Shown: positions 20,954 to 37,967, numbered from the stretch's first letter. The stretch: DNA of 64,000 nucleotides from Chloroflexota bacterium (GCA_017853275.1 JAFMJV010000003.1:64649-128648); one strand, 5' to 3'. The notes: generated by a model not told the origin, from the sequence alone. Program-made: numbers and translations.

Positions 20954-20956
20954 CGC

Positions 20957-22288
20957 TCAGGCGCGGTCGATCGTGAGATCGAGGAAGTGGGTCGCGCAGC
21001 TGATGCAGGGGTCGTAGGAGCGGATCATCTGCTCCAGGCGGTGGGTCGCCTCGGCATGGGGGAGCGCCAGGACCTCGCGCGCGGCGACCACGAGATCGGC
21101 CTCGATCGCCGCCTGGTTCTGGCTCGTGGGCGGGACGATCTGCGCCTCCCGGATCCGGCCCCGATCGTCCACCACGTAGCGGTGGAAGAGGAGGCCGCGC
21201 GGGGCTTCCGTGGCCCACGCGGCGACCCCGGCGCGCGGCTCCCAGGCGGCGAGCGGGACGGAGGGCGGCACGTAGGCATCGATGAGGTCGAGCGCCTCCG
21301 CGTAGGCGTGGATGAGCTCCACCCCGCGGGCCACGATCGAGGCGTAGATGTTCGTCCGGATGAGCTCCGCGAAGCCGCTCTGGTCGAGCGCCTCGCGGGC
21401 GAGCGGGTGGAGCGTCCCGCCGGTGAGGGTGACGCGGGCTGCGGGGCCGAGGAGATAGGCGCCCTTCCCGTCCAGGGTCCGGGCATGGAGCGCGTTGCTC
21501 CCCTCCACCTGGTGCTCCTCGAAGATCGAGCGCCAGTCCGCCATCGGGATGTCGATCCCGTCCGAGCTCACGATCCGGCCGTGGTTGAAGGGGTACTCGT
21601 CCGGGTGGCGGAGGGAGACGAGGCGAGGCTCGCGCGCGAAGGCGGGCATCGGGAGGCTCGCCACGAAGCGGGTCGTCTCCTGCGCGATCGCGAGCCCGTC
21701 GGCGAGCGCGGGCCGGAGGGCGAGGAGCTCGGAGCGGCGCGGGGCGCGGCTCCAGCCGCCCACGCGGACGGAGACCGGGTGGATCGGCCGGCCGCCGAGG
21801 AGGCGGAGGAGGTCGTTCCCGGCCTTCTTCGCGCGGAGCGCCGCCTCCACCCGCTCCCGGTGGTCCGCGGCCATCGCGATCGCGGAGGGATAGCCGAGGA
21901 AGTCCGGCGCGTGGAGGAGCCAGATATGGAGGGCGTGGCTCTCGATCCACTCGCCGCAGTAGAGGAGCCGCCGGAGGGCGCGCACGGAGGGATCGATCGC
22001 GACGCCGAAGAGGTCCTCGAAGGCGTGGACCGCGCTCATCTGGTACGCCACGGGGCAGATCCCGCAGATGCGCGCGACGATGTCGATCACCTCGTCCGGC
22101 GTCCGATCCACCACGAGCGCCTCGAAGTAGCGCGGCGCCTCGAAGATCCCGAGGCGCGCCTCCACGATCTCGCCGCCGCGGACGACGAGGTGGAGCGAGC
22201 CCTCCCCCTCGACGCGGGTCAGCTCACCGACGGCATAGGTGCGGTCCTCGGGGACGGGGGCCGGGGTGGGGGTGGGACGCTCGGTCAT
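20957..22288 (-). CDS. hyhL: [NiFe]-hydrogenase large (alpha) subunit, group 3b-like
   Basis: N-terminal RICGICPVAY and C-terminal DPCISCATH Ni-Fe ligand motifs. The product is 443 aa from ATG 22288 (MTERPT...), and ATGA overlaps the small-subunit stop. Confidence 0.85.
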   Translation of the reverse strand: MTERPTPTPAPVPEDRTYAVGELTRVEGEGSLHLVVRGGEIVEARLGIFEAPRYFEALVVDRTPDEVIDIVARICGICPVAYQMSAVHAFEDLFGVAIDPSVRALRRLLYCGEWIESHALHIWLLHAPDFLGYPSAIAMAADHRERVEAALRAKKAGNDLLRLLGGRPIHPVSVRVGGWSRAPRRSELLALRPALADGLAIAQETTRFVASLPMPAFAREPRLVSLRHPDEYPFNHGRIVSSDGIDIPMADWRSIFEEHQVEGSNALHARTLDGKGAYLLGPAARVTLTGGTLHPLAREALDQSGFAELIRTNIYASIVARGVELIHAYAEALDLIDAYVPPSVPLAAWEPRAGVAAWATEAPRGLLFHRYVVDDRGRIREAQIVPPTSQNQAAIEADLVVAAREVLALPHAEATHRLEQMIRSYDPCISCATHFLDLTIDRA

Positions 22289-23151
22289 CGCGCTCCCTCC
22301 TGGGCCGCGCGGCGGGCGGCCTCCGGTGCCATGGGAAGCGAGCGGCGGCTCCCCTCCGGCGCTCCGCCCGTGGCGTCGATCGCGCTGCGGAAGGGCTGCG
22401 CCCAGGCCGTGAAGCCGGCGAGGAGCCGGCCCGCCTCCGCGGGGTCGTGGCCGAGATCGGCGGTGAGATGGCGGAGGAGGCCGTCCACGTTCGCGCCCTC
22501 GCGCGGCCCGAAGCAGCCGTAGCAGCCGCGCCCGTAGCGGGGGCAGATCGCGCCGCATCCACCCTGGGTCACCTGGCCGAGGCAGGGGACACCCTTCGCG
22601 ACCGCCACGCAGACCGCGCCGCGCCGCTTGCACTCCTGGCAGACCGATTCATCGCGCAGCTGCGGCCGGCGGCCGGTGGCGAGCGCGGCGAGAAGCTCCA
22701 GGAGCTGGTCCGGGTCGATCGGGCAGCCGCGCAGCTCGGCATCCACGGGGACGAGATCGGCGACGGGGAGGGAGCGGTCGAGCGAGGCGACCCATTCCGG
22801 CCGGGCGTAGACCGCGTCCCGGAAGGCCGCGTGGTCGCCCCAGTTCCGGAGCGCCTGGATCCCGCCCGCGGTGGCGCAGGCGCCGATCGTCACGAGGTAC
22901 CGCGTCCGGGCGCGCAGCTCCACGATCCGCTCCGCCTGGTGCGGGTCGGAGATCGAGCCCTCGATGAAGAGGACGTCGAAGGGGCCGGCGGAGCGCGCCG
23001 AGGAGGCCTCCGGGAAGTCGAGGATCTCGAAGCGCTCCGTGACGTCCAGGAGGCGCTCCTCGAGGTCGAGGATCGTGAGCTGGCAGCCATCGCAGGAGGC
23101 CATCTTCACGACCCCCACGCGGGGCCGGGCGGGCGCGGCGGAGGAAGCCAT
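22285..23151 (-). CDS. hyhS: [NiFe]-hydrogenase small (delta) subunit, group 3b-like
   Basis: VVKMASCDGCQ...IGACATAGGI plus C-terminal Cys clusters (CQECKRRGAVC, GGCGAICP, CYGCFGP) fit an NuoB-fold FeS subunit. Start is ATG 23151. Confidence 0.85.
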   Translation of the reverse strand: MASSAAPARPRVGVVKMASCDGCQLTILDLEERLLDVTERFEILDFPEASSARSAGPFDVLFIEGSISDPHQAERIVELRARTRYLVTIGACATAGGIQALRNWGDHAAFRDAVYARPEWVASLDRSLPVADLVPVDAELRGCPIDPDQLLELLAALATGRRPQLRDESVCQECKRRGAVCVAVAKGVPCLGQVTQGGCGAICPRYGRGCYGCFGPREGANVDGLLRHLTADLGHDPAEAGRLLAGFTAWAQPFRSAIDATGGAPEGSRRSLPMAPEAARRAAQEGAR

Positions 23152-25130
23152 CAGATCCCCTCCCGTCCGAAGGTGTCGCCGAGCTGGGCGATCGAGAAGA
23201 CCGGGCCGTCCTTGCAGATGAAGAGGCTCCCCATCTGGCAGTGGCCGCAGAGCCCGATCCCGCACTCCATGTGGCGCTCCAGGGTGACCCACGTGCGGGC
23301 CGCCCCGATCCCCCGCGCGGCGAGCGCCGCGACCGTCGCCTGCATCATCCGCTCCGGCCCGCACACGAAGGCGTGCGTCGCGCTGCCGTCCCAGGTCGCC
23401 CGGTCGAAGAGGTGGGTGACCACGCCGACCGGCCCGGACCAGTCGCTCCCCGCGCGGTCCACGGTGAGCGCGACCTCGATCCCGGCGTGCGGCCAGATCC
23501 CCTCCAGCTCATCGCGGAAGAGGAGGTCCGCCGGGGTCCGCGCGCCGTAGTAGAGGCGCACGCTGCCGAAGCGCTCCCGGTCCGCCACCACCGCGTCCAG
23601 GACCGGCCGGAGCGGCGCGAGACCGATCCCGCCGGTGACGATCACGAGGTCGCGGCCGGCGACCCGGTCGAGCGGCCAGGCGGTGCCGAGGGGTCCGCGG
23701 AGGCCCACCTCATCCCCCGGCTGGAGGCCGCACAGGACGCGCGTGGCGGGTCCTGCGCCGCGGATCGTGAGGACGAGACCGTCCGCGGTGAAGCGGCTGA
23801 TCGAGATCGGCAGGGGCGGGAAGCCGGGCAGGTCGACCATCGCGAACTGGCCCGGCCGGCCGGCCGCGAAGGCCGGGTCGAGGCGGTCGATCGCGAGCGT
23901 CGTGGTATCCGCGGTCTCGCTCCGGACCGCGCTCACCCGTCCCACCGCGAAGGCGCCGGGCGTGGCCGCCACCGGCGCGATGACCGGCTCCGGCGGGCGG
24001 ACCGGCGCGATCGCCGCGGCCTCCTCCCGGAGATCGATCCCGACCGGGCACCAGGTGACGCAGCGGCCGCAGCCGACGCATCCGGGCGTCCCGAACTGGT
24101 CCTCCCAGGTGGCGAGCTTGTGCGTCAGCCACTGGCGATAGCGGTCGCGCGGGCGGGAGCGGAAGGAGCCGCCCGCCACCTTCGCGAAGGACGGGCTGAA
24201 GCAGCTATCCCAGGTCCGGTTCATCACGACGTCCGCGCCCGCCAGGTCGGTCGTCTGGGTGACCGAGGTGCAGAAGCAGGTGGGGCAGACGCTCGTGCAG
24301 CTCCCGCAGGTGATGCAGCGCTCGGCCACCTCGGCCCAGCGGGGATGGTCCGGCTGCGCGAGGAGGCGCTCCTTGAGGCCGGGGAGGGCGACCGGGTCGC
24401 CGATCCTGGCGCGCGTGGCGGCGACCTCGTGGGTCGCCCGGGCCCGCTCCTCCGGCGTGGCGACGCGCGCGGCGAGGGCGGCGAGGAGCGTCTCGCCCGC
24501 AGGCGTGGCCGCCTCCACGAGGAGCCCGTCCTCCGTCTCCACGATCGCGAGGTCGTGGCCGGCGGTGAGCTCGGGTCCGCTCCCCATCGAGGTGCAGAAG
24601 CAGGTCGGGGCGCTCACCGTGCAGCCCACCGCCACGATCAGCGTGTCCGCGCGCCGGGCCGCGTAGTCCGTGTCCACGAAGGGGCCGCCCTGGAGGACGC
24701 GGTCGTGGATCCGGAGCGCCGCGATCTCGCAGGCACGGATGCCGAGGAAGGCGATCTTCGGCGGCTCGGGGAGGACGGGGTCGAAGGTGACCTTCCCCTC
24801 CGACCGGGTGGCGCGGGAGATCGGGACGAGGGACGGGAAGGTCCACGCCTTGGGCGAGGAGGGGCCGAGGTTGTAGCCGAAGAGCCGGTCGTCCTCGCGC
24901 CGGACGAGCCGGTAGCGGCCGGGCGCCTGGTCATCCCCCCAGCCGCGCGGGAGCTGGTCCGCGCTGACGATCTCGTCCATCACGATCGCCCCGTCCGCAA
25001 CGGTGGGGCCGATCACCCGGCGGCCGTCCGCGCGGAGGAGGTCGAGGAGGGGCTGGATCCCGTCCCGCGAGAGGAAGCGCGGTCCGGCCAGGGCCGGAAG
25101 GGGAGCGGGGGGTGGGGGCGTCATCACCAT
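23151..25130 (-). CDS. Fused hydrogenase beta-gamma subunit (AsrA-like 4Fe-4S protein fused to AsrB-like FAD/NAD(P)/2Fe-2S oxidoreductase)
   Basis: One uninterrupted frame. The N-terminal half carries CITCGSCTSVCPTCFC and CVGCGRCVTWCP. The C-terminal half carries RPGQFAMV, VTGGIGLAPL and CGIGLCGHCQMG. Start is ATG 25130 or 25124. Confidence 0.8.
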   Translation of the reverse strand: MVMTPPPPAPLPALAGPRFLSRDGIQPLLDLLRADGRRVIGPTVADGAIVMDEIVSADQLPRGWGDDQAPGRYRLVRREDDRLFGYNLGPSSPKAWTFPSLVPISRATRSEGKVTFDPVLPEPPKIAFLGIRACEIAALRIHDRVLQGGPFVDTDYAARRADTLIVAVGCTVSAPTCFCTSMGSGPELTAGHDLAIVETEDGLLVEAATPAGETLLAALAARVATPEERARATHEVAATRARIGDPVALPGLKERLLAQPDHPRWAEVAERCITCGSCTSVCPTCFCTSVTQTTDLAGADVVMNRTWDSCFSPSFAKVAGGSFRSRPRDRYRQWLTHKLATWEDQFGTPGCVGCGRCVTWCPVGIDLREEAAAIAPVRPPEPVIAPVAATPGAFAVGRVSAVRSETADTTTLAIDRLDPAFAAGRPGQFAMVDLPGFPPLPISISRFTADGLVLTIRGAGPATRVLCGLQPGDEVGLRGPLGTAWPLDRVAGRDLVIVTGGIGLAPLRPVLDAVVADRERFGSVRLYYGARTPADLLFRDELEGIWPHAGIEVALTVDRAGSDWSGPVGVVTHLFDRATWDGSATHAFVCGPERMMQATVAALAARGIGAARTWVTLERHMECGIGLCGHCQMGSLFICKDGPVFSIAQLGDTFGREGI

Positions 25131-25606
25131 GAGCGCACCTGCTCGGCAGCATAGAGATCGAGGAGCTGGAGGCGCGTCGCCGTGAGCCGCCGGGAGACGG
25201 CGAGGAGGACGCGCGGGTAGAGCGCCGCGGCGAGGGCAGGGTCCTCGTGGAGGGCCGCGCGGAGCGCGGTGCCGGGGAAGACGATCGCCTCGAGCGGCTC
25301 GATCGCGACGGCCGTCGAGGTGGCCCGGTAGGGCGGCACGAGCGCGGACCAGCCGTAGATGTCGCCCGGCTCCACGGTGAGGATCGTCGCCTCGCCGCGC
25401 TCGGGGACGAGCGTGCGCAGGGCGACCCGGCCGGTGATCACGACCCCCAGGAGGTCCGTCCCCTCGCCCTCGCGGAGGATGACCGTGCCGGCGGGCGCGG
25501 AGACCGGCCGGGCGAGCGCCGCGAGCCGGGCGGAGACCGCGGGCGCGAGCCCGGTGGCGAACCACGTGGAGGCAAGGGTCGCGACGAGGGTGGCCTGATC
25601 GTTCAT
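25124..25606 (-). CDS. Stand-alone cyclic-nucleotide-binding-domain protein (Crp-like effector domain, no HTH)
   Basis: 160-aa ORF with a cNMP beta-roll pattern (VILREGEGTDLLGVVITGRVAL...EPGDIYGWSALV...RATSTAVAIEP). Its stop (25124-25126) overlaps the beta-gamma start. Confidence 0.7.
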   Translation of the reverse strand: MNDQATLVATLASTWFATGLAPAVSARLAALARPVSAPAGTVILREGEGTDLLGVVITGRVALRTLVPERGEATILTVEPGDIYGWSALVPPYRATSTAVAIEPLEAIVFPGTALRAALHEDPALAAALYPRVLLAVSRRLTATRLQLLDLYAAEQVRSW

Positions 25607-25699: not shown

Positions 25700-28600
25700 T
25701 CAGCCTCCGGGGGGGCGGCCGGCGGGCGGGGCCGGGCGGGAGCGGGCTGCGATCACCGTGGCCGCCACCGCGACGAGGATGAGGATGCCCATGACGATCG
25801 TGTCCGCGCGGATCGTGGAGCCCTCGACGCGCGGGTCCATGTTCACCGCGAACTGGAAGTCGTAGTTCCAGGTGGGGAGGAGCATCTGGTAGATGTTCGC
25901 CATCGCCGAGGGGACGGGGAGGCCGGAGAGGTTCGGGATGAAGGCGACGAGGAAGAGGATCGCGGCGAGGAGGATCCCCACCGCGAGCCGGCGCGGATCC
26001 CGGGCACGCAGGACGAGGATGGCCGCGATCCCGAGCGCGATCAGCGCCGGAAGGGCGATGAAGATGTCCGCGACCTCGACCGAGATCGGGTCACCGGAGA
26101 GGAGGAGGCGCGCGGCCACGACGCCGAGGAGCGTGGCGCCCCCGGTGCCGAGGAGCGCGACGCTCCCCCAGCGGCCGTTCCGGCCGGGCGCGCCGGTGCT
26201 TCCGGAGATCTGGACGATCCAGAGCGCGACGGCGATCCCCGCGAGGAGGACGAAGAGGATCCCGATCGCCTGCTGGCTGAGCGTGATCGTGCGGGTGACG
26301 GTCTCCGCGCAGGCGGTCGCTCCCGGGTTCATCTCCGTGACGCCCGCGATCGCGCAGAGCGGCTGGCGGAAGAGCCAGAGGAGCGGGGCGCCCACGAGCG
26401 AGAGGGCGGCGGCGATCCGCGCGATGAGCCAGGCGGCGCGCGAGGGGCCGTGCCACAGCTCCGCCACGAGGTAGCCGAGCCCGAGGACGATGAATGGGAG
26501 GCTCGCATAGACGTGGTACTGGAAGGTGGCCCGGTCGATCCGCGCCCACGGGATCCACATCGACAGGAAGAGGACGATGACGAGCGTGAGCGCGAGGCTC
26601 CGCCGCCGCCACGCCGCCCACGCGGAGAAGATGAGGCCCGCGATCCCCATCCAGAAGACGACGAGGTTCCCGGTGTCGTAGATCGAGCCGGTCCGGCCAC
26701 CTGCGAAGCCCTCCTGGTAGAACCAGACCGGCTTGAGGTCGAGCGGCCAGGCCCACCACGGCGAGGTGGCCGCGTGGGTCGCCCGCAGGCCGTCGTGGTA
26801 GTCGTACATCCCGAGCGTGAGCTGCCAGAGCGTCTGCCCGGTGTTCCCGGCCGGGAAGCCCGGCCAGAGCTGGTTGCCGAGCGCCGCCCAGGGGAGGTAG
26901 GCGGCCACGTAGACGGCGAGCGGGATCAGCGTGAGGCAGGCGAGCGCGAGGAGCCAGGGGATCCCCCCGGCGGCCCCGGGGAGGAGCCACGCGTGGGGTG
27001 GCGGTGCGGAGGGCTCCGGGCCCACGCGGGAGAGGCCGGGCCGGGCGAGCGGTCCGATCCCCGCCGCGCCCGCGAGGCGCCCCGCGACCAGGACGCCGAC
27101 CCCGAGGACGATGAGCCCGATCCCCGCGAGGAGCGCGAGCCGCGGGTCGGGCGGGGCAGGGGCGGCCGGGTCCGACGGGGCAAGGAAGAGGAGACCGCCC
27201 GCGATGAGCGCGAGGACGCCGAGGACGATCGGCACAAAGGTCGCGAAGCGGAGCTCGTCCAGGGTCATCCGGACCGGGCGCCGGACGATCGCCGCGGCGA
27301 GCGCGACGGTGAGCAGGATGATCACGATCGGGAAGAGCCAGTTCCGGCTCGGGTCCGGGACATCCGCCGCCCGGAGCGCCATCGCGCCGAGGACGGCGGA
27401 GAGGACGACCATCCCGGCGAGCGCGAGGAGCCGGCCGAGGGCGGAGCGGAAGAGGACGAGGAGGATGATCCCGCCGATCGCGTAGGCCGCGACCCACTTG
27501 GACGCGAGCGCAAGCCCGAGCAGGAGCCCGACCCCCATGAGCCCGGCGGCGATCTGCCAGGCGCGGGTCCAGCGACCGGTCCAGAGCCCGGCGAAGAGGG
27601 TGAGCGCCGCGACCACGAAGAACGTGATGTAGACGTCGTTCATCGCGATCCGGGCGTTCGCGAAGAGCATCCCCTCCGCGAGGGCGAGGACCGCGACCGC
27701 GACCGCGACGGCGCGGCGGCGGAAGAGGATCCGGGCGAGCAGGTAGAGGAGCGCCGCGGTGAGCGCGCCGAGGATGACGCCGGGGAGGCGCCAGGCGAAG
27801 GCGTTCCCGCCGACCCCCACGGTGGCGCTCGCCCCGTCCGCGGCGACCGCGATGAGCCCCGTCCGGTCCGCCTCCGGCCGGTCGGGCTGGAGGTCGAGCG
27901 TCACCGCGACCGGGGTGAAGGGGAGGCGGGCGTCCGCGAAGAGCGAGCTCCCGTTCGGCTCGATGACCCAGACGGTCGGCTCGCCCGCGGCCGTCCTGCC
28001 CACGACGTGGATGAGGGACGCGGTGTCGTTCCAGAGGACCGGGCCACCGCTCCCCGGAAGCCGGACCGGCTCACGCGGGATGGGGCCCGTCCGGTCGAAG
28101 CGCCACGCGGTCACCTCGCCCTCGCGGGCGACGTAGAGGAGGGGCTCGCCGGTCCCGTAGGGCATGTAGCCGAGACCGAGGACGGGGCTCTCCGTGCCGA
28201 GGGTGCGCAGGATGCGCAGCGAGGAGGGATCCACGATCTCCACGCCCGCGGGGGCCGCGACGGCGACCACGGGGACGGAGGCGAAGCTGACGCCGGTGAG
28301 CCGCCCGTCGTCGATCGGCCCCTGGAGGGTCTCGCGCACGAGATCGTCCGGCCAGGCGGCGAGGACGACCGGTCCGTCCGCCGTGCGGAGCCGCTCCTCG
28401 ATCGCCACGGCATCGATGCCGAGGGCTTCGGCGAGCGGGATCGCCGCGGTCGCGAGGTCGCCGATCAGGGTGGGGTCGGCAACGACCGCCTCGGCGTCCC
28501 CCGCGCGGGAGAGGGCGATGGAGCCGGGGAGGGAGAGCGAGGGACCGACCTGCCGGAGGGTGAGGTCGATCGTGTGCAGCGTCCCGTCCGCGTCGAGGAG

Positions 28601-30934
28601 GACGACCTCGTCCCAGGTCCGCACGAGGTCGATGACCGGGGCGCCGGGCGGGAGGGTCGCGATCTCGTCCGGGAGCGGGGGCCGGTCCGCGTTGCCGAGC
28701 CGGAGCGCATCCATCGCGACGGTGTCGATCGAGCGGAGGGTCCGGTCCTCGCCGGCGATCCAGAGCTGATGCTCGTCCGCGTCCAGCACGAGGGCGGTGG
28801 CGGCAGGACCGATCGGACCGGTGCGCTCGCCGGTGGCGAGATCGATCGCGGTCACTCCGTCCGGGCCGGCGATCCAGAGCCGGTCGCCCATCCGGCGGCC
28901 GGGGTCCCCATCCGGGCTCCAGCGCCGCTCCACGAGGGCGTCCGCCACCGCGCCGTCCGCGACCCGCCCGGTGGCGACCACGCGGTTCCCGCCCGTGAGA
29001 TCGACGCTCGCGGCCATCAGGTACTTCGCGAGGTGCGGGTGCGTGTACTCGTAGATCCCGTGCGGGTATCCGTAGCGCCAGTGCTGGAGGAACTCGAGCG
29101 CGGTCCGCGCGTGGTAGACCTCGTCGAAGTACATCCCGTAGGGGTGCGCGAGGTTGGCACCCCGCAGGACGAGGCCCGCGAGGACGATCGCGAGGAGGGC
29201 GGCGGCATCCTTCCGGGTGAGCGTCCCGCCCCGCTCGCGGGCGAGGCCGGCGCTCCGGTCCGCGCGGGCGCGGGGGGCGGAGAGGTAGCGGCCCACGCGG
29301 GACGCCGCGGTCCGCCAGGCATCCCAGCCGGCGGGCGCGGGCATGGCGGCCTCCATCCCGGCGGATGGCGTAGGCGCCGCGAGCGGCCCGGAGCCGCCCA
29401 CGCGGCGGGGGGCAGAGCCGGGTACGGGGGCTTCCATGGGAGCGCCGGGGATGGGGTCGCCCACCGGACGCGCGAGGTCCGGGATGACGCTCCGGCGGAC
29501 CGCCCCGGCGAGCTCGCCGGCGATCCGCTCGAAGGGGTCCGGTGCGATGCGCCGCCGGAGCTCCCAGCCCGCGAGGACGAGTCCCGTCCCCTGGAGGAGG
29601 ATCGCGACGAGGATCGGGAGCGGTCGGCCGGGCCCGAAGGCCTCGCCGAGCGGGAGGCCCGCGATGTTCTCCGTGGAGTAGCCGGGGACCATGAGGATCC
29701 CGTGGAGGTTGATGAAGGAGCCGGCCGCGACCGCGATCAGGGCGGCCATCCAGCGCGGCGAGGCGACGGCGAGGAGCGGCAGGAAGGCGAAGACCGGGAA
29801 GAGGTAGCGCTCGTGGACGCGCGTGGGGAGGAAGAAGAAGGCGAGCGAGAGCCAGACGGCCGCCAGGAGGATCGTCCAGCGGTCCGCGGCGAGGATGCTG
29901 CGCAGGAAGCCCCACAGGAAGCCGAGCGCAAGGAGGACCGTCCCGATGAGGATCCCGGGGAGCGGGCCGAGGAGCGGGACGTCGTCCGGGGACCAGGCGT
30001 AGGCGAGGGCGAGCGGCGGGCTGCCGCCGGCGCCCAGGAGCGCCCACAGGTTGTAGGCGTTCACCGAGAGATACGGATAGCCACCCGCCGTCTGGGACAT
30101 CAGGCTGAGGTACTGGATCGGCCCGATCCCGAAGGGGAGGGCGATGGCGAGGAAGACGAGGACGAAGGCGAGCCCGGCGGTGACGAGCCGGAGGGGTCCC
30201 TGCTCGGCGGCGAGCCACGGCCGGATGGCCGCCGGCCCCCACGGCCGGTTGCGCGGCGCGGATCCCCGGCGGAGGAGATGGCGCGAGATCAGGACGCCCA
30301 CGACGATCGGCGCGAGGACGATCCCGAACTGGGGCTTCATCAACGCCGCGACGGCGAGGAGCGCGGCGGATCCCTCGCCATTGCCGCGCACGAGGGCCGC
30401 GACGGCGAGGAGCATGACGAGCGCCCCCACCGCGTCCGTCTGCCCCCAGATCGCGGAGTCGTAGATCGTGACCGGGTTGAAGAGCCAGACGGCGGCGGCG
30501 ATGAGCGCCAGCTGCGGCGCGCGCCGGCCCGGCCAGGTCCAGCCGAGGACGAGCCGGTAGAGGAGGAACCCGACGGCCAGGTCCGCGGCGATCGCAGGGA
30601 GCTTGATCAGCTCCCCGGTGGCGTTCCCGCCGTCCCCGCCGAGGAACGAGCCGAGGAGACCGATCGGCCACAGGACGAGGAGATAGCCGGGCGGGTAGTC
30701 GGACCAGACGGATCCGTAGAAGCCGCCCGGTCCCCGCTCCGCCATGACGTTCGCCCAGGCGATATAGCTGTTGAGGTCCGTCGCGAAGCCCGATCCGGGG
30801 AAGAGGACATACGCGAGCGTGAGACGGAGGGCGAGAGCGCCGAGCAGGAGTAGGATGAGGGCGGGCGTCTGGGAGACCGGGGGCAGAGGACGCCCAGCCG
30901 ATCCGACCACCGAGCCGGACGAGGTCGGGAACAC
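25700..30934 (-). CDS. Giant polytopic double GT-C glycosyltransferase with a soluble insertion in the PMT/GT39 module
   Basis: The track ORF reaches 31360 (1886 aa). I prefer GTG 30934, which has GGAGG 11 nt upstream and TATACT about 41 nt upstream. Module 1 is a GT-C-like module (FATDLNSYIAWA...DYPPGY). Module 2 is PMT-like (MYFDEVYHAR...YEYTHPHLAKY...NAFAWRLPG...SPWWAWPL...FQYHVY). Confidence 0.75.
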   Translation of the reverse strand: MFPTSSGSVVGSAGRPLPPVSQTPALILLLLGALALRLTLAYVLFPGSGFATDLNSYIAWANVMAERGPGGFYGSVWSDYPPGYLLVLWPIGLLGSFLGGDGGNATGELIKLPAIAADLAVGFLLYRLVLGWTWPGRRAPQLALIAAAVWLFNPVTIYDSAIWGQTDAVGALVMLLAVAALVRGNGEGSAALLAVAALMKPQFGIVLAPIVVGVLISRHLLRRGSAPRNRPWGPAAIRPWLAAEQGPLRLVTAGLAFVLVFLAIALPFGIGPIQYLSLMSQTAGGYPYLSVNAYNLWALLGAGGSPPLALAYAWSPDDVPLLGPLPGILIGTVLLALGFLWGFLRSILAADRWTILLAAVWLSLAFFFLPTRVHERYLFPVFAFLPLLAVASPRWMAALIAVAAGSFINLHGILMVPGYSTENIAGLPLGEAFGPGRPLPILVAILLQGTGLVLAGWELRRRIAPDPFERIAGELAGAVRRSVIPDLARPVGDPIPGAPMEAPVPGSAPRRVGGSGPLAAPTPSAGMEAAMPAPAGWDAWRTAASRVGRYLSAPRARADRSAGLARERGGTLTRKDAAALLAIVLAGLVLRGANLAHPYGMYFDEVYHARTALEFLQHWRYGYPHGIYEYTHPHLAKYLMAASVDLTGGNRVVATGRVADGAVADALVERRWSPDGDPGRRMGDRLWIAGPDGVTAIDLATGERTGPIGPAATALVLDADEHQLWIAGEDRTLRSIDTVAMDALRLGNADRPPLPDEIATLPPGAPVIDLVRTWDEVVLLDADGTLHTIDLTLRQVGPSLSLPGSIALSRAGDAEAVVADPTLIGDLATAAIPLAEALGIDAVAIEERLRTADGPVVLAAWPDDLVRETLQGPIDDGRLTGVSFASVPVVAVAAPAGVEIVDPSSLRILRTLGTESPVLGLGYMPYGTGEPLLYVAREGEVTAWRFDRTGPIPREPVRLPGSGGPVLWNDTASLIHVVGRTAAGEPTVWVIEPNGSSLFADARLPFTPVAVTLDLQPDRPEADRTGLIAVAADGASATVGVGGNAFAWRLPGVILGALTAALLYLLARILFRRRAVAVAVAVLALAEGMLFANARIAMNDVYITFFVVAALTLFAGLWTGRWTRAWQIAAGLMGVGLLLGLALASKWVAAYAIGGIILLVLFRSALGRLLALAGMVVLSAVLGAMALRAADVPDPSRNWLFPIVIILLTVALAAAIVRRPVRMTLDELRFATFVPIVLGVLALIAGGLLFLAPSDPAAPAPPDPRLALLAGIGLIVLGVGVLVAGRLAGAAGIGPLARPGLSRVGPEPSAPPPHAWLLPGAAGGIPWLLALACLTLIPLAVYVAAYLPWAALGNQLWPGFPAGNTGQTLWQLTLGMYDYHDGLRATHAATSPWWAWPLDLKPVWFYQEGFAGGRTGSIYDTGNLVVFWMGIAGLIFSAWAAWRRRSLALTLVIVLFLSMWIPWARIDRATFQYHVYASLPFIVLGLGYLVAELWHGPSRAAWLIARIAAALSLVGAPLLWLFRQPLCAIAGVTEMNPGATACAETVTRTITLSQQAIGILFVLLAGIAVALWIVQISGSTGAPGRNGRWGSVALLGTGGATLLGVVAARLLLSGDPISVEVADIFIALPALIALGIAAILVLRARDPRRLAVGILLAAILFLVAFIPNLSGLPVPSAMANIYQMLLPTWNYDFQFAVNMDPRVEGSTIRADTIVMGILILVAVAATVIAARSRPAPPAGRPPGG

Positions 30935-30965
30935 GCGCTGACCGGCCTCCAGGAGCGAGCGGAGA

Positions 30966-32786
30966 GTGGACGGGAGTATAGCAACGGGCCCCCTGCCGCC
31001 ATTCCCCCCGGATGAAGCGGGTGATGGGCGGTCGCCGACGTCACCCCCGGCTCCGCCCCGGCCCTCGTGGGCACCCCCGGTGCGGCCCGGTCCGGCGACC
31101 CCGTCACCCGTCCCACCGGAGCCTCTCGTCCCCCCGCTCCCGCGCGCCTCGAACGCCGCCGCGGAGCGCTCGCTCGCGGGCTGGGCCGTGGCGGCGATCG
31201 GGGAACCCGCCGCGGAGCCCGGTGAGCCGCCGGCCGGCCGGACCGGCGACCTCCGCTCGCCGGGCGTCCCACCCCCGCCCGGTCCCGGCAGCGACCCCTG
31301 GCAGCTCGCGGCTCCGGCGCCGGGGGAGGCCGGCGGCCCGGCCGTCAGCCCGTGGATCACCGATCCCGGGGAGGTGCCGGCTCCGCCCGTGGCGCTCCCG
31401 GCGCGGCCGGGGAGGAAGCGGCGCGATCGCTCGACGATCCTCGGGCGCTTCCTCGACCGGGTCGACCCGCTGATCGTGGGTGCCCTCCTCTTCCTCGTCG
31501 CTGCGTGGGTCTACCTGGGGAGCAACCCGGGCCGGATCGACTTCTACGACCACTTCACGTGGCAGGCCGAGGCCTGGCTGAGCGGCCACGCGGGGATCCG
31601 CTGGCCCGTCTCGGAGGGGCCCTTCGTGAACGACTACTTCCAGGACGTGCTCCCCCTCGACGACGATCCGGGTCACGCCCTCATCCCCTTCCCGCCGCTC
31701 CCCGCGATCCTCCTTCTCCCCTTCGTGGCGGCCTTCGGGCTGGCGGCGAGCGCCTCCACCCTCGCGGCGGTCCTCGGCGCGCTGAACGTCGTGCTCTGCT
31801 GGCGGATGCTCCTGCGGGTGACGGATCGCCGGGATGCCGCGCTCCTGGGCGCGATCTTCTACGGCTTCGGGACGGTCGCGTGGTACGCGGCGATGCTCGG
31901 GAACACGTGGTTCTACGCTCACGTGGCGGCGTCCACCTTCGTCTTCCTCTCGATCACCGCCGCGCTGGACGCGGACCGGCGGGAGCAGACGGGCCAGGCC
32001 GCGCGGCGGATCGCGGGGATCCTCGTGCCGCGGGCGGTGTGGGCCGGCTTCCTCGCGGGGATCGGGATGCTCGCCCGGCTCCCCACCGGGTTCGGTGCGA
32101 TCTTCCTCGTCTTCGTGGGCGGCGGCGGCCACTGGTTCCGGCGCGGGCTCTCGGCGGCGATCGGGGCGCTGATCCCCGTCCTCCTCCTGCTCGGCTACAA
32201 CCTCACCGTGACCGGGCATCTCTTCCACCCGGCCTACGAGTACCTCTACCGCAACGAGTACCGGCCGGTGGGCGCCTTCTGGAACGATTCGTGGGCGATC
32301 GAGGACCCGCGCTACATCCCCCAGAACGCGATCATCATGCTCGCGTGGCCGCCGGAGCGGCCGATCGAGGAGGACCCCGAGTGCGCCGGCCGGGGGAACC
32401 TCCAGGGCGCGGACCTCCTCTTCGACCGCCAGTGCCCCCTCCTCCGGCCGAGCCCGATCGGGATGAGCATCCTCCTCACGAGCCCCGCCTACCTCCTCAT
32501 GCTCCCCGTCCTGTTGCGCGGGAGGCGGAACCGGCTCGTCCTGGGCGCCGGCCTCGCGGTCCTCCTCATCACGATCGTCAACCTCAGCCACTTCAGCCAG
32601 GGCTGGGTCCAGTTCGGGTACCGCTTCTCCAACGACTTCGCACCGTATGCCGCGATCCTCGTCACGCTGGGGATCGCGAGCGCGCTCCGGAACCGGACAG
32701 GGACCGCGATCGCCGTCCTCCTCGTGGGCGCCTCCGTCCTCGTCAACGCCTGGGGGGTCTGGTGGGGAGTGGCACGGGGATGGTGA
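30966..32786 (+). CDS. GT-C-fold membrane glycosyltransferase (ArnT/PMT_2-like)
   Basis: Polytopic body begins near residue 170 (VDPLIVGALLFLVAAWVYL) and has an acidic first loop (DFYDHF...NDYFQDVLPLDDDP). Start is uncertain: GTG 30966 from the track or GTG 31374. The N-terminus is Pro-rich and low complexity. Confidence 0.6.
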   Translation: MDGSIATGPLPPFPPDEAGDGRSPTSPPAPPRPSWAPPVRPGPATPSPVPPEPLVPPLPRASNAAAERSLAGWAVAAIGEPAAEPGEPPAGRTGDLRSPGVPPPPGPGSDPWQLAAPAPGEAGGPAVSPWITDPGEVPAPPVALPARPGRKRRDRSTILGRFLDRVDPLIVGALLFLVAAWVYLGSNPGRIDFYDHFTWQAEAWLSGHAGIRWPVSEGPFVNDYFQDVLPLDDDPGHALIPFPPLPAILLLPFVAAFGLAASASTLAAVLGALNVVLCWRMLLRVTDRRDAALLGAIFYGFGTVAWYAAMLGNTWFYAHVAASTFVFLSITAALDADRREQTGQAARRIAGILVPRAVWAGFLAGIGMLARLPTGFGAIFLVFVGGGGHWFRRGLSAAIGALIPVLLLLGYNLTVTGHLFHPAYEYLYRNEYRPVGAFWNDSWAIEDPRYIPQNAIIMLAWPPERPIEEDPECAGRGNLQGADLLFDRQCPLLRPSPIGMSILLTSPAYLLMLPVLLRGRRNRLVLGAGLAVLLITIVNLSHFSQGWVQFGYRFSNDFAPYAAILVTLGIASALRNRTGTAIAVLLVGASVLVNAWGVWWGVARGW

Positions 32787-34378
32787 GCGCGGCGCGGCCG
32801 GTGGAGCGACCCCGGCGGGAGCCCTTCCCGGACACGTGGGCTGCGGCCCCGCTCCTCGCAGCGGCGGCCGCCCTCGGGCTCTACCTCCCCACCCTCATGC
32901 CGGGGGTCGGGGTCTGGGACACCGCGGAGTTCCAGGCGCTCGGTCCCACGCTCGGGATCGCCCATCCCACCGGCTACCCGGCCTACACGCTCCTCCTCTG
33001 GCTCGCCTCCGTCGTCCTCCAGCCGTTCGGGGAGCCGGCCTTCCGGGCGAACCTCCTCTCGGCGCTCCTCACCGCCGGGGCGGCCGCCTTCGCCGCGATC
33101 GCCCTCATCCAGCTCACCCGCCGGACGGCGATCGCGCTTGCGGGCGGGATCGCGCTCGCCGTGGCGCCGGTCGCGTGGGCGAACGCGCTGCGCGCGGACC
33201 CCCATCCGTTCCACCTCTTCCTCAGCGCGCTCCTCCTCGTCCTCCTCATCGCCTGGGGCGAGCGGGTCCGCGCCGGCGAGGAGCGGGCGGGCCGCCTTCT
33301 CGTGGCCGCGTCGGCGGTCTGGGCCCTCTCCGTGGGGAACCACGCGCTCAGCCTCCTCCTCGCCCCGGGGATCGCGCTCTACGTCCTCCTCGTCGTGCCG
33401 CCGCGGGCGTGGCTGACGCGCCGGCACTGGGGGCTCGTCCTGGGCTGCATCGTCACGATCGTCGTCATCGTGGTGGCGACCTACGCCTACCTCCCGATCC
33501 GCTCCTCCATGGGACCCCCGCTGGACTACGCCCACCCCGCGGACTGGATCCGCACGGATGCGTGGGGGAACGTGACCGGCGGCTTCCGCTACCTCGTCCT
33601 CGGCGAGCAGTTCCAGGGGACCTTCCGCGAGCTCCCGGAGCTGCGCGAGGCGATCGCCACCGTCTGGGCGCAGCTGGAGGCGAACCTCGGGCCGGCGGCC
33701 TGGCTCGTCCTCCTCGGCATCCCGGCCGGGCTGATCCGGCGGACCCGCGAGACGATCCTCATGCTCGCCTGGTTCGTCATCACCTGGCGCTTCTCGCTCG
33801 GCTATCTGAACGCGGCGATCGAGCGCTACTACCTCGTCCCGATCCTCGTCGCGGTCCTGTGGGCCGGGATGGGGCTCGACCTCGTCTGGAGCGCGCTGGC
33901 CCGGGTGGGCCGGCTCGTCGCGGCACCGGGATCGCGGGCCGCGCAGGCCACCGGGCTCGCGGCTTCGATCCTCATCGGCGGGCTCGCGCTCGGCGTCGTC
34001 CTCCAGCCGGTCCAGGAGCGAGCGCGGATGCTGGACGCCTCCGGCGATACGTGGGCGCAGGCATGGCTGGACGAGGTCCTCGTGGCGCTCCCGCAGGACG
34101 CGGTCATCGTCAGCTGGTGGGGCTGGTCCACGCCGCTCTGGTATGCGATCCACGTGGAAGGCCGGCGGCCGGACCTCCTCGTCATCGACGATCGCAACGT
34201 CCTGGATGACGGCTACGGCGGCGCCGGGGTGGCGATCGATACCTGGCTCGGCCGGCGGCCGGTCTACATCATCCGGCTGGACGGGGATCTCCCCGCCTTC
34301 CAGGAGCGCTGGGGGCTGGAGCCTCTGCCGGGGATCACGACGGGTAGCCCGGTCTACCGGGTCATCCCGCCCTCCTGA
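32780..34378 (+). CDS. DUF2723/TMEM260-like GT-C membrane glycosyltransferase
   Basis: ATG 32780 overlaps the previous stop. The N-terminal loop motif VWDTAEFQALGPTLGIAHPTGYPAY resembles the WDxGEF...HPPG signature of DUF2723 proteins as I recall it. A polytopic N-terminal half is followed by a soluble C-terminal domain. Confidence 0.65.
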   Translation: MVSAARPVERPRREPFPDTWAAAPLLAAAAALGLYLPTLMPGVGVWDTAEFQALGPTLGIAHPTGYPAYTLLLWLASVVLQPFGEPAFRANLLSALLTAGAAAFAAIALIQLTRRTAIALAGGIALAVAPVAWANALRADPHPFHLFLSALLLVLLIAWGERVRAGEERAGRLLVAASAVWALSVGNHALSLLLAPGIALYVLLVVPPRAWLTRRHWGLVLGCIVTIVVIVVATYAYLPIRSSMGPPLDYAHPADWIRTDAWGNVTGGFRYLVLGEQFQGTFRELPELREAIATVWAQLEANLGPAAWLVLLGIPAGLIRRTRETILMLAWFVITWRFSLGYLNAAIERYYLVPILVAVLWAGMGLDLVWSALARVGRLVAAPGSRAAQATGLAASILIGGLALGVVLQPVQERARMLDASGDTWAQAWLDEVLVALPQDAVIVSWWGWSTPLWYAIHVEGRRPDLLVIDDRNVLDDGYGGAGVAIDTWLGRRPVYIIRLDGDLPAFQERWGLEPLPGITTGSPVYRVIPPS

Positions 34379-34409
34379 GCGGCGGGCGGACGGGTAGTAG
34401 GATGCAGCC

Positions 34410-35207
34410 GTGCAAGCCGTAGCCGATCCCGGGGAACGCCGGCGCGTCGCCGCCCTCAGCTACTTCTTCCCCGCGCACAACGAGGAGGAGAACCTCGAGG
34501 CGCTCGTGGACGAGGCCCTCGCGACGCTCCCCCTGCTCGCGGACGAGTTCGAGATCATCGCCGTGAACGACGGCAGCCGCGACCGGACCGGGGAGATCGC
34601 GGACCGGCTCGCCGCCGCGCACCCCGGACGCGTCCGTGCCGTCCACCACGAGGTGAACCGCGGCTATGGCGCCGCGCTCCGGAGCGGCTTCGGGGCGGCG
34701 CGCTACCCGCTCATCTGCTTCACGGACGGGGACCGGCAGTTCCGCGTGGCGGACCTCGGCCGCCTCCTCGACCTGCTCGACCCTGCCGGCGGGGCGCCGG
34801 ACGTGGTGGTGGGCTACCGGATCCAGCGCGCGGACCCCGCGGTCCGGCTCGCCTATGCGCGGGTCTACCGCGCCTGTCTGCGGCTCTTCTTCGGCCTCGG
34901 GGTCCGCGATGTGGACTGCGCCTGCAAGCTCTTCCGGCGCGATGCCCTTGCGGGGATCCGCCTCGAATCGGGCGGCGCCTTCCTCTCCGCGGAGCTGCTC
35001 ATCAAGCTGCGCGCCACGGGCCGCACGATCCGCGAGGTCGGCGTCCCCCATCACCCCCGGGTCGCGGGCCGGCAGTCGGGGGCGAACCCGCGCGTCGTGC
35101 TGCGTGCCGTGCGCGACTTCTGGCGGCTCCGGATCCGGCTCTGGCTGCGCCGGGACGCGGCGCTCCGCCGGGGCGTCCCGGTCCTCGGGGACGAGAGCGG
35201 CCGCTAG
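34410..35207 (+). CDS. GT2 polyprenol-phosphate glycosyltransferase (Ppm1/DPM-synthase-like)
   Basis: FPAHNEEENL...IIAVNDGSRDRT...NRGYGAALRSG...TDGDRQF are GT-A (DXD) motifs of dolichol/polyprenol-phosphate mannose or glucose synthases. GTG start. Confidence 0.8.
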   Translation: MQAVADPGERRRVAALSYFFPAHNEEENLEALVDEALATLPLLADEFEIIAVNDGSRDRTGEIADRLAAAHPGRVRAVHHEVNRGYGAALRSGFGAARYPLICFTDGDRQFRVADLGRLLDLLDPAGGAPDVVVGYRIQRADPAVRLAYARVYRACLRLFFGLGVRDVDCACKLFRRDALAGIRLESGGAFLSAELLIKLRATGRTIREVGVPHHPRVAGRQSGANPRVVLRAVRDFWRLRIRLWLRRDAALRRGVPVLGDESGR

Positions 35208-35720: not shown

Positions 35721-37967
35721 CTACGGCTCCGGCGACGCTTCGGCCGCCGGTGTCTTCTTCGGCTTCGGGGTCCGGTCCGGCTTCGGGGTCCGGTCCGGGC
35801 GGGGGGTCCGGTCGGGCGCCGGGGTGGTGAGCGGGGAGACCTTGCCATCCGGGTCGTCGATGAGCGGCGCGCGGTAGAGCCCGGTCCCGGTCACCCAGAC
35901 GACGTCCGGCGTCCCCTTGGCCCGCGCAGCCTCCACGAGATAGAAGCCGCGCACGTCCTCGAGGGGCGGGACCCGGTCGGCCGCGATCCACTGCTCGATG
36001 AACTCGCCGCTGCTCTCGTCGTAGGCGACGATCCGCTGCCACTTCGCGTCCCAGAGGTAGAAGCGCCCGTCCGTGTTCGCGAGGTAGCGGAAGTCGTGGC
36101 CCGGCCGCAGGTCCGCATCGTCCGGTGGCGTCTCGAGCTCGAAGTCGTCCTGGATCCGGCCCTGGTAGTGGCGGACGAGCCCGCGATCGTCCAGCGTGAA
36201 GAGGCTGGACGAGACGTGCATGTCCCGGAAGGTGGAGACGTCCTCGTTCGCCGCGGCCAGGTAGTCGTTCACGTCCGCGAAGCCGGTCCCGTCCCCGGTG
36301 GGGATATAGCGCCGGATCTGGTTCCCTTCCGGGTCCGCCACGTAGAGGTTGTAGAAGTTGCTCTCCGCGCTGAGGAGGTAGGTCTCCATCGCCACGGCGC
36401 GGCTGGAGAGGACCGGGTCCTCCGGCTTGCGGACCTCCGTGAGCGTCCCGGTCCCCGCGGTGCGCCAGCGCCAGATCGCGCCGAGGTCGTCCAGGATGAG
36501 GAGGTCGACCCCGCCCGTGGCGAGGAGATGGGGGGCGGCCACCACGAGCCGCCCGATGCCGTCACCCTGGCGGACGACCGCCCGCTGCTCGCCGGTCCGC
36601 GGATCGACCGTCCAGACGGCGCCCGCCGCCCGGTCGATGAAGTAGGGGTTGCGGTCCGGGCCCTCCACGAGCGCGGCGGGCTCCATCCCCTCGGTCTTCA
36701 TGAGCAGCGTGGCGCGCAGCCGGCGGACGCCATGGAGGCGCTCCAGGCAGAGCCGCACCGACTCGCCGACGGGGGCGATCACCTCTTCCGTGACACCGCC
36801 GTCCCGAGCGCGGCCGAGCGCGGCCCAGGCATCCCGGCAGAGGGAGAGCGCCTCCACCCGGTCCGTCCCCACGAGCTCGCTGCCGCGATCGCCCTTCTCC
36901 TTCGCCTCCACCCAGGCGCGCTCACCGGTGGTGAGGGTGACGACCGGGTCCTCCTTCCCCTGCGGGAAGATCCAGATCCCGAGACCGAGGACGAGGACGA
37001 CGGTGAGGAGGCCGATCAGGGCGCTCGCGATCCGGCGCTCGCGCTCCCGCTGGCTGACGGACGGCGCGACGCGGCGGACGCTCACGGAGCGCGCCGGGAG
37101 GCGGGAGATCACCCGGTCCGTGAGGACCGCGACGCTCCGCGAGATCCGCGAGCCGGCGCCGCTCACCGCTCCCGCAGCGCCGGTGACGGCATCGGTCACG
37201 GTGTCCGTGCCGGGGAGCGCGCCGCCCGGGAGCTCCGCATAGGCATCGCTCCGGCCGGCGGGCGGGACGGGGCGCCGCTCGGGACGGATCGTGGATCCAT
37301 CCACCGCCTCGATCGCGATCAGGCCGTCCGACCCCTCTCCACCCGCCGCGACGAAGAGATGGTGGAGATGCTCCGCCGCGGACTGCGGGTGGAGGGTGAC
37401 GACCGCGTTCTTCAGCTCCTCGGTACCCACCGTCCGGGTGACGTTCCGGGAGACGAGGAGGATCGCGTCGCCGATCGCGAGCTCGCCGCGCCAGACGTCG
37501 ATCCGGACCCCCTCCTCGGCGGGAAGGCCGGGCGATGGGGTCTGATCCGGCATGAGCAGCCGCGCCGCCCGGACGAGGTAGGCGTCCGTCTCGCCGATCG
37601 AGGCGACATAGAGCTCGCCCTGGCGGACCACCGCGACCGCGATCCCGATCGCCCCCTCGACCGGCGCCCCGGGGTCGCGCATCCCGCGCAGCCGTCGGTT
37701 GACGGAGCGGATCGCCTTCTCCAGGCAGATCGGGATCCCCGCGCTCTCGTCGTAGTAGTAGTCACGGCGGATCGCGGCGGCGACGAGCTGGGTGACCTCT
37801 GCGCTCCGGGCCGAGGTCCCGTCGCTCGTGACGAGGAGGTAGAGGTTCCCCTTCGAGCGGATCTTCGACCCGATGACGGGCACCTCGACGAGCTGTGCGT
37901 CCGCGGAGCCGGCGATCCGCTCGGCCTCCGCGACCAGGCCGTGCCGCAGCTCCAGTCGCGCTCCCAT
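35721..37967 (-). CDS. Membrane protein: cytoplasmic PP2C-like domain, single TM, extracytoplasmic repeat (propeller-like) domain
   Basis: ATG 37967 follows a GAAGG RBS. The N-terminal 230 aa resemble a PPM/PP2C fold (YLLVTSDG...VASIGETDAYLV...AILLVSRNV). A TM segment (IASALIGLLTVVLVLGLGIWIF) is followed by repeated beta-strand motifs. Confidence 0.6.
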   Translation of the reverse strand: MGARLELRHGLVAEAERIAGSADAQLVEVPVIGSKIRSKGNLYLLVTSDGTSARSAEVTQLVAAAIRRDYYYDESAGIPICLEKAIRSVNRRLRGMRDPGAPVEGAIGIAVAVVRQGELYVASIGETDAYLVRAARLLMPDQTPSPGLPAEEGVRIDVWRGELAIGDAILLVSRNVTRTVGTEELKNAVVTLHPQSAAEHLHHLFVAAGGEGSDGLIAIEAVDGSTIRPERRPVPPAGRSDAYAELPGGALPGTDTVTDAVTGAAGAVSGAGSRISRSVAVLTDRVISRLPARSVSVRRVAPSVSQRERERRIASALIGLLTVVLVLGLGIWIFPQGKEDPVVTLTTGERAWVEAKEKGDRGSELVGTDRVEALSLCRDAWAALGRARDGGVTEEVIAPVGESVRLCLERLHGVRRLRATLLMKTEGMEPAALVEGPDRNPYFIDRAAGAVWTVDPRTGEQRAVVRQGDGIGRLVVAAPHLLATGGVDLLILDDLGAIWRWRTAGTGTLTEVRKPEDPVLSSRAVAMETYLLSAESNFYNLYVADPEGNQIRRYIPTGDGTGFADVNDYLAAANEDVSTFRDMHVSSSLFTLDDRGLVRHYQGRIQDDFELETPPDDADLRPGHDFRYLANTDGRFYLWDAKWQRIVAYDESSGEFIEQWIAADRVPPLEDVRGFYLVEAARAKGTPDVVWVTGTGLYRAPLIDDPDGKVSPLTTPAPDRTPRPDRTPKPDRTPKPKKTPAAEASPEP
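35760..35813 (-). repeat. Three tandem 18-bp units encoding (PDRTPK/R)3 at the C-terminus of the PP2C-like protein
   Basis: cggcttcggggtccggtc occurs twice and is followed by cgggcggggggtccggtc. The translation is PDRTPRPDRTPKPDRTPKP. Confidence 0.85.

Follow-up and report, generated by a model that had tools for sequence, protein, structure and literature searches.

A Chloroflexota locus grouping four GT-C modules with a GT2 protein of the polyprenyl-phosphate glycosyltransferase type

A 64,000-nucleotide (nt) stretch of a Chloroflexota genome (GCA_017853275.1, JAFMJV010000003.1; hereafter the window) contains, at positions 25700-35207, four genes that we call A, B, C and D. Gene A lies on the minus strand and is followed by the divergent genes B, C and D on the plus strand. 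We propose, with a probability of roughly 0.6, that they encode a GT2 synthase of a lipid-linked sugar donor and four GT-C glycosyltransferase modules that together act in extracytoplasmic glycosylation. D, as a peripheral GT2 protein, would transfer a monosaccharide from a nucleotide sugar to polyprenyl phosphate at the cytoplasmic face of the membrane; the sugar is probably a hexose, with mannose or glucose as the best guesses. The lipid-linked sugar would then be flipped by a component encoded outside the locus, and the product of D would feed four GT-C sites on the outer side of the membrane: the two modules of A, together with B and C, which contribute a single site each. The PMT-type module of A carries a beta-propeller in its first outer loop, and this domain most likely binds or positions the acceptor. 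Possible acceptors would be envelope proteins rich in Ser, Thr and Pro, or else a lipoglycan or wall polysaccharide. Polyprenyl-monophosphate hexoses are the donors of all the characterised families to which the GT-C modules come closest (PMT, TMEM260, GT87 PimE and ALG6/8). The proposal builds on the observed gene structures, the families and folds of the modules, their acidic and histidine motifs, the layout of B-C-D and co-conservation across the order. The preliminary description of this DNA had likewise seen four GT-C modules beside a GT2 of the polyprenyl-phosphate-sugar synthase type, and family assignments, folds and relatives of solved structure bear it out.

At a G+C content of 72-75%, the window is rich in open reading frames (ORFs) in all six frames. 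Genes were called from the G+C content of ORFs by codon position; its third-position value (GC3) is 0.93-0.98 for A to D, and all four are likewise called as genes in the source assemblies, confirming the earlier placement and divergent orientation. The ATG of C overlaps the stop codon of B by 7 nt, within the sequence ATGGTGA, and the same 7-nt overlap recurs in a related locus (L003). The gap between C and D is 31 nt, and the stop codon of D overlaps that of a convergent BFN-domain gene. One ORF (32647-34209, plus strand) was rejected as an Arg/Pro-rich wrong-frame artefact, the true gene C lying in the frame of 31352-34378 with its start at 32780.

Gene D (34410..35207, plus strand) encodes a soluble protein of 265 amino acids (aa) that belongs to GT2 according to Pfam (90.8 bits) and, judging from its PDB matches, to the polyprenyl-phosphate glycosyltransferase type. 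Its best matches in the PDB are ArnC (three distinct sequences; E ~6e-11, residues 15-215), PfDPMS of P. furiosus (1.2e-8, residues 16-240) and GtrB (2e-6). The similarity to ArnC and PfDPMS also spans the half that deals with the lipid-phosphate acceptor, whereas other GT2 enzymes align with D only over its first ~95 residues (to about residue 109). The DGDRQ sequence of D aligns with DADLQ of ArnC, the D-x-D-x-Q metal/donor motif; D106, G107, D108 and Q110 are conserved in 58 of 59 relatives and R109 in all 59. The earlier likening of D to Ppm1 and DPM synthases holds for the enzyme type. D appears, however, no closer in sequence to DPM synthases or Ppm1 than to ArnC, and mannose as its sugar is a guess.

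Gene A (25700..30934, minus strand) encodes a 1744-aa fusion of two GT-C modules and a beta-propeller, as delineated from GC3 frames, Pfam matches and public homologues. Its start codon is a GTG with GGAGG just before it, and its exact sequence is present in public data (P0001). The 120 best-scoring homologues (cluster representatives) come from Chloroflexota, many of them labelled Candidatus Limnocylindrales, an uncultured lineage of soil and freshwater Chloroflexota. Nearly all of these 120 are 1650-1913 aa long and most cover at least 95% of A, indicating that the fusion is real and not an assembly artefact.

The N-terminal module of A (residues 1-460; 29555..30934, minus strand) has about 10 transmembrane (TM) helices. 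In a Pfam search, the first 600 aa matched PIG-U at 26.5 bits (cutoff 24.5) and GT87 at 25.6 bits (cutoff 25), with Alg6_Alg8 at 23.2 bits falling below its cutoff of 25; all three, which we take to be GT-C families, match within residues 80-270. A scan of full-length homologues found Alg6_Alg8 in 8 of 26 and GT87 in one of 26. D53, directly after TM1, is invariant in 26 homologues, as is D79-Y-P-P, and the loop carrying D53 probably faces outward. A search of the PDB with the family profile returned no relative of solved structure for this module. By its Pfam matches and invariant residues this part of A is a GT-C module, with no single family clearly assigned. The Arg/Pro/Ala-rich linker that follows (residues 461-575; 29210..29554, minus strand) is poorly conserved and has no TM segment; by the positive-inside rule it would be cytoplasmic.

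The second module begins with its own TM1 and the start of outer loop 1 (residues 576-649; 28988..29209, minus strand), recognised from invariant columns and a structural model. The motif F-D604-E605-V-Y-H-A-R-T, starting at F603, is invariant at the start of this loop. An AF2 model of residues 546-1744 (predicted local distance difference test, pLDDT, 85.9; predicted template-modelling score, pTM, 0.85) places helices at model residues 29-47, 58-76 and 90-102 and is all-beta over model residues 105-495. The beta region is an insertion of ~390 residues in outer loop 1 (residues ~650-1040; 27815..28987, minus strand), between TM1 with the loop-1 helices and the remaining PMT core. Its best Foldseek matches are WD40/Tako8 propellers (probability 1.0, target-normalised template-modelling score 0.6-0.73), and we predict that it is a 7-8-bladed propeller; sequence searches gave weak matches to propellers, and PQQ_2 was matched in one homologue.

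The rest of A (residues 1041-1744; 25700..27814, minus strand) comprises the PMT-type TM core and a PMT_4TMC region, to which ~4-5 additional TM helices are joined as a C-terminal block that has a conserved LLPTWN..FQF motif. Pfam PMT matches residues 1043-1163 at 44.6 bits (gathering score 22.7) and PMT_4TMC residues 1368-1527 at 36.9 bits (32.4), both being found in 26 of 26 homologues, and PMT_2 scores 30.7 bits on the C-terminal half, above its gathering score. The family profile of A also matches yeast Pmt1 (6p25; E=3.6e-5), while the NCBIfam Pmt equivalog NF058602 scores 29.8 bits, far under its cut-off of 800. With GT-C families matched at both ends, A is the double GT-C protein that had been described. 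Characterised PMT-type enzymes have MIR domains in loop 5, and TMTC and TMEM260 have TPR domains. The loop-1 propeller of A is a different solution, in a layout not seen in characterised O-mannosyltransferases, and a literature search for double or tandem GT-C proteins, or for a PMT with a beta-propeller, returned nothing relevant besides the Pgf system considered below.

Gene C (32780..34378, plus strand) encodes a 532-aa TMEM260-like (DUF2723) GT-C protein. It matches Pfam PF11028 at 82.6 bits (gathering score 24.2), and the TMEM260 loop motif reported earlier is present as GVWDTAEFQALGPTLGIAHPTGYP. C aligns with human TMEM260 (PDB 9rql; 729 aa in the solved chain) over residues 29-473 (E=6e-17), from the GT-C core into the Rossmann-like domain. 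D52 and H67 are donor-site residues of human TMEM260 and D441 is its catalytic base; D52 and H67 align with D47 and H62 of C, which are both invariant in 55 relatives. E50 is conserved in the same relatives, and within the PTG[YF]P motif P63, T64, G65 and P67 are invariant, with Y66 in 46 of 55. No characterised bacterial member of the TMEM260 family was found in the literature.

Gene B (31374..32786, plus strand), a 470-aa membrane protein, lies in the frame of an ORF that spans 30966..32786. Its probable start is at 31374; the source gene call starts at 30966 and gives 606 aa, and the listed relatives outside its own 606-aa cluster are 424-552 aa long. Positions 30935..31373 are thus either the divergent A-B spacer or a Pro-rich N-terminal extension of B of 136 codons. 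This segment of ~440 bp is very GC-rich in all codon positions, and its equivalent in L003 is 35 bp. Neither in it nor in its surroundings did we find a sigma-70-like promoter, a terminator, or an Rfam match or structured RNA.

B matches no Pfam family at E<=1 apart from a chance DUF match, and precomputed Pfam annotation is empty for B and for all 120 listed homologues; its family profile has no sequence match in the PDB. NCBIfam yields a single match, weak at 33.7 bits, to the putative glycosyltransferase family LA_3751/LA_3752. Homologues are numerous (2373 detected), and the source names of the top 120 are all 'hypothetical protein', save for one uninformative MGnify tag. An AF2 model built from 52 sequences (pLDDT 88.5, pTM 0.90) matches GT-C enzymes of the PDB at Foldseek ranks 1-17 (AglB, ArnT, ALG12, STT3, Pmt4, ALG3, DPY19 and Emb), with probabilities of 0.84-1.0 and template-modelling scores of 0.36-0.48, whereas the next matches are unrelated transporters with probabilities below 0.1. 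Residues Y58, H60, F61, W63, Q64, N86, Q90, D91 and P105-x-P107-P108, all in outer loops, are invariant, N86 and D91 lying in the first loop. B is therefore predicted to be a GT-C protein by fold. The description of B as ArnT/PMT_2-like holds at that level, ArnT being the second-best structural match; since B has no Pfam match, it is not a member of the PMT_2/ArnT family by sequence. The idea that B is a paralogue of one of the A modules was dropped, as neither BLASTP nor hhalign found any similarity. An out-of-frame reading of B (31373-32786) gives tblastn matches of 35-59% identity in relatives because the underlying DNA is conserved; two public 'proteins' that match this reading (P0121 and P0122) look like frameshifted gene calls. 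B thus exemplifies how wrong-frame ORFs stay conserved in very GC-rich genomes.

To measure how far the locus is shared, we scanned one genome per GTDB species and recovered A relatives in 304 stretches, of which the 80 best are Chloroflexota without exception. Co-occurrence was counted over those 56 loci in which the N-terminal module of A is present with no less than 5.2 kb of upstream DNA. All 56 also have B and D, and 50 have C. Median identities across loci are 72% for D, the highest of the block, 57% for B, ~50% for A (40% for its propeller) and 50% for C, and lineages whose A has no more than 32-36% identity still show the arrangement. In all 56 species A, B and D stay together, the opposite flank of A being variable.

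Several observations weigh against the proposal. The synteny block includes genes of other function at equal frequency: in the same 56 loci, the BFN-domain gene and a gene for a 747-aa protein are present in 56, and those for DciA, recF and dnaN in 55. Since the whole origin-proximal block is frozen, synteny is weak evidence of shared function, and the constant order of A to D may reflect a stable origin-proximal block. The co-conservation for which the preliminary description had called is thus found, but it is not specific to function; a better argument is how closely B, C and D are packed, in the manner of an operon. C has been lost from six of the 56 loci (L045, L046, L059, L070, L071 and L075) with the order of A, B and D kept, D and B being directly adjacent in L046. 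Paralogues of the second half of A, with propeller and PMT core and without the N-terminal GT-C module (1029-1589 aa), occur elsewhere in the same metagenome-assembled genomes (L082, 9881-12970; L069, 9380-13888; L074, 9380-14149). Their neighbours are housekeeping genes (adenylate kinase, Ogt, seryl-tRNA synthetase, an ECF sigma factor), with no GT2 beside them. Should D indeed make the donor, it is therefore probably a supplier shared with other enzymes, and these paralogues presumably draw on the same donor as the locus. Nor does 25700-35207, which holds A to D and nothing else, contain a gene for a flippase or for sugar-nucleotide synthesis; the neighbouring genes encode a cyclic-nucleotide (cNMP)-binding and the BFN-domain protein. 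On these two grounds the earlier term 'self-contained' is not supported. None of the larger ORFs of the window scanned against Pfam matched a GtrA-type family, a search that did not extend to small ORFs or to the remainder of the genome.

Some features of the proteins themselves point the same way. Among NCBIfam equivalogs D attains no cut-off; the top matches score 55-59 bits where 375-529 would be required. The best score goes to PgaC; ArnC gives 56 bits (cut-off 529), a Halo Dol-P-hexose transferase 55.3 (cut-off 375), PpgS 42.9 (cut-off 370) and PgfS 37.5 (cut-off 500). With no cut-off approached, these models assign D neither a sugar donor nor a product. D also has no TM or hydrophobic segment, unlike ArnC, GtrB and PfDPMS; soluble or peripheral synthases of the DPM1/Ppm1 type without TM helices exist, however, and the missing helices therefore do not exclude the function. 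Codon 53 of D (34566-34568, AAC) encodes Asn, giving VNDGS where 59 of 59 relatives have Asp (VDDGS); this residue lies in the nucleotide-sugar-binding motif, and the change could alter or reduce activity. Asn53 is seen in two independent assemblies (L001 and L002). In C, the position of the TMEM260 catalytic base D441 is taken by G448 (Ser in 48 of 53 relatives), and the conserved SWW-S-[YF]-STPLWY stretch of its relatives has no acidic residue, the alignment there being of modest confidence. C also lacks the TPR domain, with no TPR match in Pfam and the TMEM260 match stopping at residue 467 of that protein, before its TPR.

These observations leave room for other explanations. A to D may be neighbours by inheritance with separate products, for instance protein O-glycosylation for A, a wall polysaccharide for B and another target for C, with D as a housekeeping donor synthase for all GT-C enzymes. 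The frozen gene order through BFN, the 747-aa protein, DciA, recF and dnaN (55-56 of 56) would fit such a history, as would the dispensability of C in six of 56 genomes, the propeller-PMT paralogues in unrelated neighbourhoods without a GT2 and the absence of a detectable sequence relationship between the A, B and C families. The start-stop overlap of B and C and the short C-D gap, however, argue for co-transcription of at least B-C-D, and A, B and D are never apart in 56 species in spite of the variable other side of A; we consider mere inheritance unlikely, though well worth keeping in mind. Alternatively, D could be a cytoplasmic GT2 of the ordinary kind, whose acceptor is soluble or linked to undecaprenyl diphosphate, and the GT-C donors would come from elsewhere. 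Its lack of a TM helix, its failure to reach any equivalog cut-off, its top NCBIfam score for PgaC and its PDB matches to GT2 enzymes of the PglI and GalT1 types are compatible with this. Those last matches, though, span the N-terminal nucleotide-binding half alone, whereas ArnC and DPMS reach residues ~215-240; in addition, the D-x-D-x-Q motif aligns exactly with that of ArnC, TM-less DPM1/Ppm1-type synthases are known, and D is the most conserved protein of the block and always lies beside GT-C genes. We regard this explanation as very improbable.

A third possibility concerns the product, which might be a glycolipid, a lipoglycan or a decorated wall polysaccharide instead of a glycoprotein, after the model of the mycobacterial PPM-dependent enzymes PimE, MptA and MptB that lead from phosphatidylinositol mannosides (PIMs) to lipomannan (LM). 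The N-terminal module of A matches GT87, the PimE family, just above cut-off, and serial GT-C enzymes are typical of glycan elongation, as in the assembly of LM and lipoarabinomannan (LAM). The preliminary description had also placed PIM genes in the window. At 107-4231 (plus strand) there are indeed two Lip_A_acyltrans genes, a PHP-domain gene and a GT4 glycosyltransferase gene in a PIM-like arrangement, and the best NCBIfam match of both acyltransferases is phosphatidylinositol-mannoside acyltransferase. They lie 21 kb away, however, score 99 and 86 bits against a cut-off of 209, and belong to a Chloroflexota host. No phosphatidylinositol (PI) synthase is seen in the window, which begins inside the PIM-like cluster, and that would explain why none is visible. 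GT87 was matched in just one of 26 A homologues in the full-length scan, and the best-supported assignments, PMT and TMEM260, are both protein O-mannosyltransferases. A non-protein product is accordingly a minority view, albeit a tenable one. Within the proposed scheme of one donor synthase and four GT-C modules, the PMT and TMEM260 assignments favour protein O-glycosylation; the marginal GT87 match and the PIM-like acyltransferase (sub-cut-off) and GT4 genes keep a lipoglycan route open.

The scheme in which a GT2 enzyme loads the lipid and a GT-C enzyme uses it is already known from the Ppm1/Pmt, Gtr, Arn and Pgf systems; it is the parts found here that are uncharacterised. In the actinobacterial Ppm1/Pmt system (Rv2051c/Rv1002c of M. 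tuberculosis; also Streptomyces), the GT2 makes polyprenyl-phosphate-mannose and a PMT-type GT-C enzyme of family GT39 mannosylates Ser/Thr of exported proteins; ppm1 and pmt are usually not adjacent. The C-terminal module of A is likewise recognised by PMT and PMT_4TMC and has retained the Asp-Glu pair of loop 1. It stands, however, behind a second GT-C module, its loop 1 accommodates the propeller of ~390 residues, and it ends in additional TM helices; D, for its part, shows no detectably greater similarity to DPM/Ppm1 than to ArnC. PimE (GT87), MptA and MptB are mycobacterial GT-C enzymes that elongate glycolipids with polyprenyl-phosphate-mannose. The N-terminal module of A resembles PimE at the borderline (25.6 vs. 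25 bits), in a match no better than those to PIG-U or ALG6/8; the host, moreover, belongs to the Chloroflexota, where a PI-based acceptor pathway is not established.

In the GtrA/GtrB/GtrC and ArnC/ArnEF/ArnT systems, a GT2 enzyme loads undecaprenyl phosphate and a GT-C enzyme transfers the sugar outside the membrane (PMC11127046). The likeness here lies in the best solved relatives of D, which include ArnC and GtrB, and in ArnT as the second-best structural match of B. The A-D locus differs in lacking a flippase gene and in having four GT-C modules instead of one, and D is without the TM helices found at the C-terminus of GtrB and ArnC. The Pgf system of S. mutans consists of the GT2 protein PgfS, the GT-C proteins PgfM1 and PgfM2 and the epimerase PgfE, and glycosylates extracytoplasmic Ser/Thr-rich disordered regions (bioRxiv 10.1101/2024.05.05.592596). 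It too clusters one GT2 lipid-sugar synthase with several GT-C enzymes, and D matches the PgfS model weakly (37.5 bits). PgfM1 and PgfM2, however, are GT-C enzymes of the YfhO family, unrelated in sequence to A, B and C, and the A-D locus has no epimerase. Pgf acceptors are encoded in the S. mutans cluster, whereas for our locus the neighbouring 747-aa protein can be put forward only as speculation. C, finally, shares with human TMEM260 the GT-C core and the continuation into the Rossmann-like domain, together with donor-site residues D47 and H62, and differs from it by the lack of TPR 'fingers' and by Gly448 at the D441 position. What is new thus lies in architecture and family: a double GT-C protein with a loop-1 propeller, a GT-C family without Pfam match (B) and a TPR-less bacterial relative of TMEM260.

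The locus lies in the vicinity of the replication origin, with dnaA at 45742-47340 and yidC-jag at 48018-50749. The minus-strand genes running up to D are dnaN, recF, those for DciA and the 747-aa membrane protein, and the BFN-domain gene. dnaA and dnaN are ~5 kb apart (40785-45755), an unusual separation for this pair; the gap is occupied by methionine-salvage-like genes (IF-2B/MtnA family, class II aldolase, cupin and APH-type kinase) and, on the opposite strand, by the gene for an RTX calcium-binding repeat protein. The other flank of A has the gene for the cNMP-binding protein and then a [NiFe]-hydrogenase cluster: the region directly downstream of A (20471-25606, minus strand) encodes the [NiFe]-hydrogenase large subunit, a HycI-type maturation protease, an FeS/NAD-binding subunit and the cNMP-binding protein. 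Among the loci of 80 relatives, this hydrogenase neighbourhood is common only to L005. An actinobacterial origin of the DNA, implied by 'PIM genes' and a high G+C content, is ruled out, the close relatives all being Chloroflexota/Limnocylindrales.

The 747-aa protein (35721-37964, minus strand), encoded between DciA and the BFN-domain gene, belongs to no Pfam family. Its N-terminus is faintly PP2C-like (22 bits), a single TM helix spans residues 315-333, and the C-terminal part is rich in beta structure. About half of its homologues, including the one in the window, end in a Ser/Thr/Pro-rich tail (TPRPDRTPKPDRTPKPKKTP...); the others have no tail. It is plausible that the tail is a target of O-glycosylation. 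Kinship of its ectodomain with the propeller of A was considered and discarded, no similarity having been found.

A more daring extension of the proposal, which we hold to be improbable and offer as speculation, is that A works as a single-polypeptide 'assembly line' specific to Limnocylindria. The propeller would capture an envelope acceptor and present it to the two GT-C sites in turn, one initiating and one extending; B and C would add further residues, and D would feed all four sites. If so, tails rich in Ser, Thr and Pro, of which the nearby 747-aa membrane protein offers an example, could serve as the acceptor. The constant place of the locus beside dnaN-recF, in small genomes of ~2.4 Mb, would then reflect an envelope glycan that is essential and defines the lineage.

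Current understanding of lipid-linked glycosylation is not overturned by these data; a known mechanism would be extended to a new lineage, with new architectures. For glycobiology, the gain is threefold: a bacterial TMEM260-type enzyme in an operon with a likely donor synthase, the B family of GT-C proteins that Pfam does not cover, and the PMT-type enzyme with a loop-1 propeller and a second GT-C module fused to it. Limnocylindria are abundant and uncultured and, to our knowledge, nothing is known of their envelope. The A-D locus provides a concrete and universally conserved candidate for the glycosylation of surface proteins or glycans in these bacteria.

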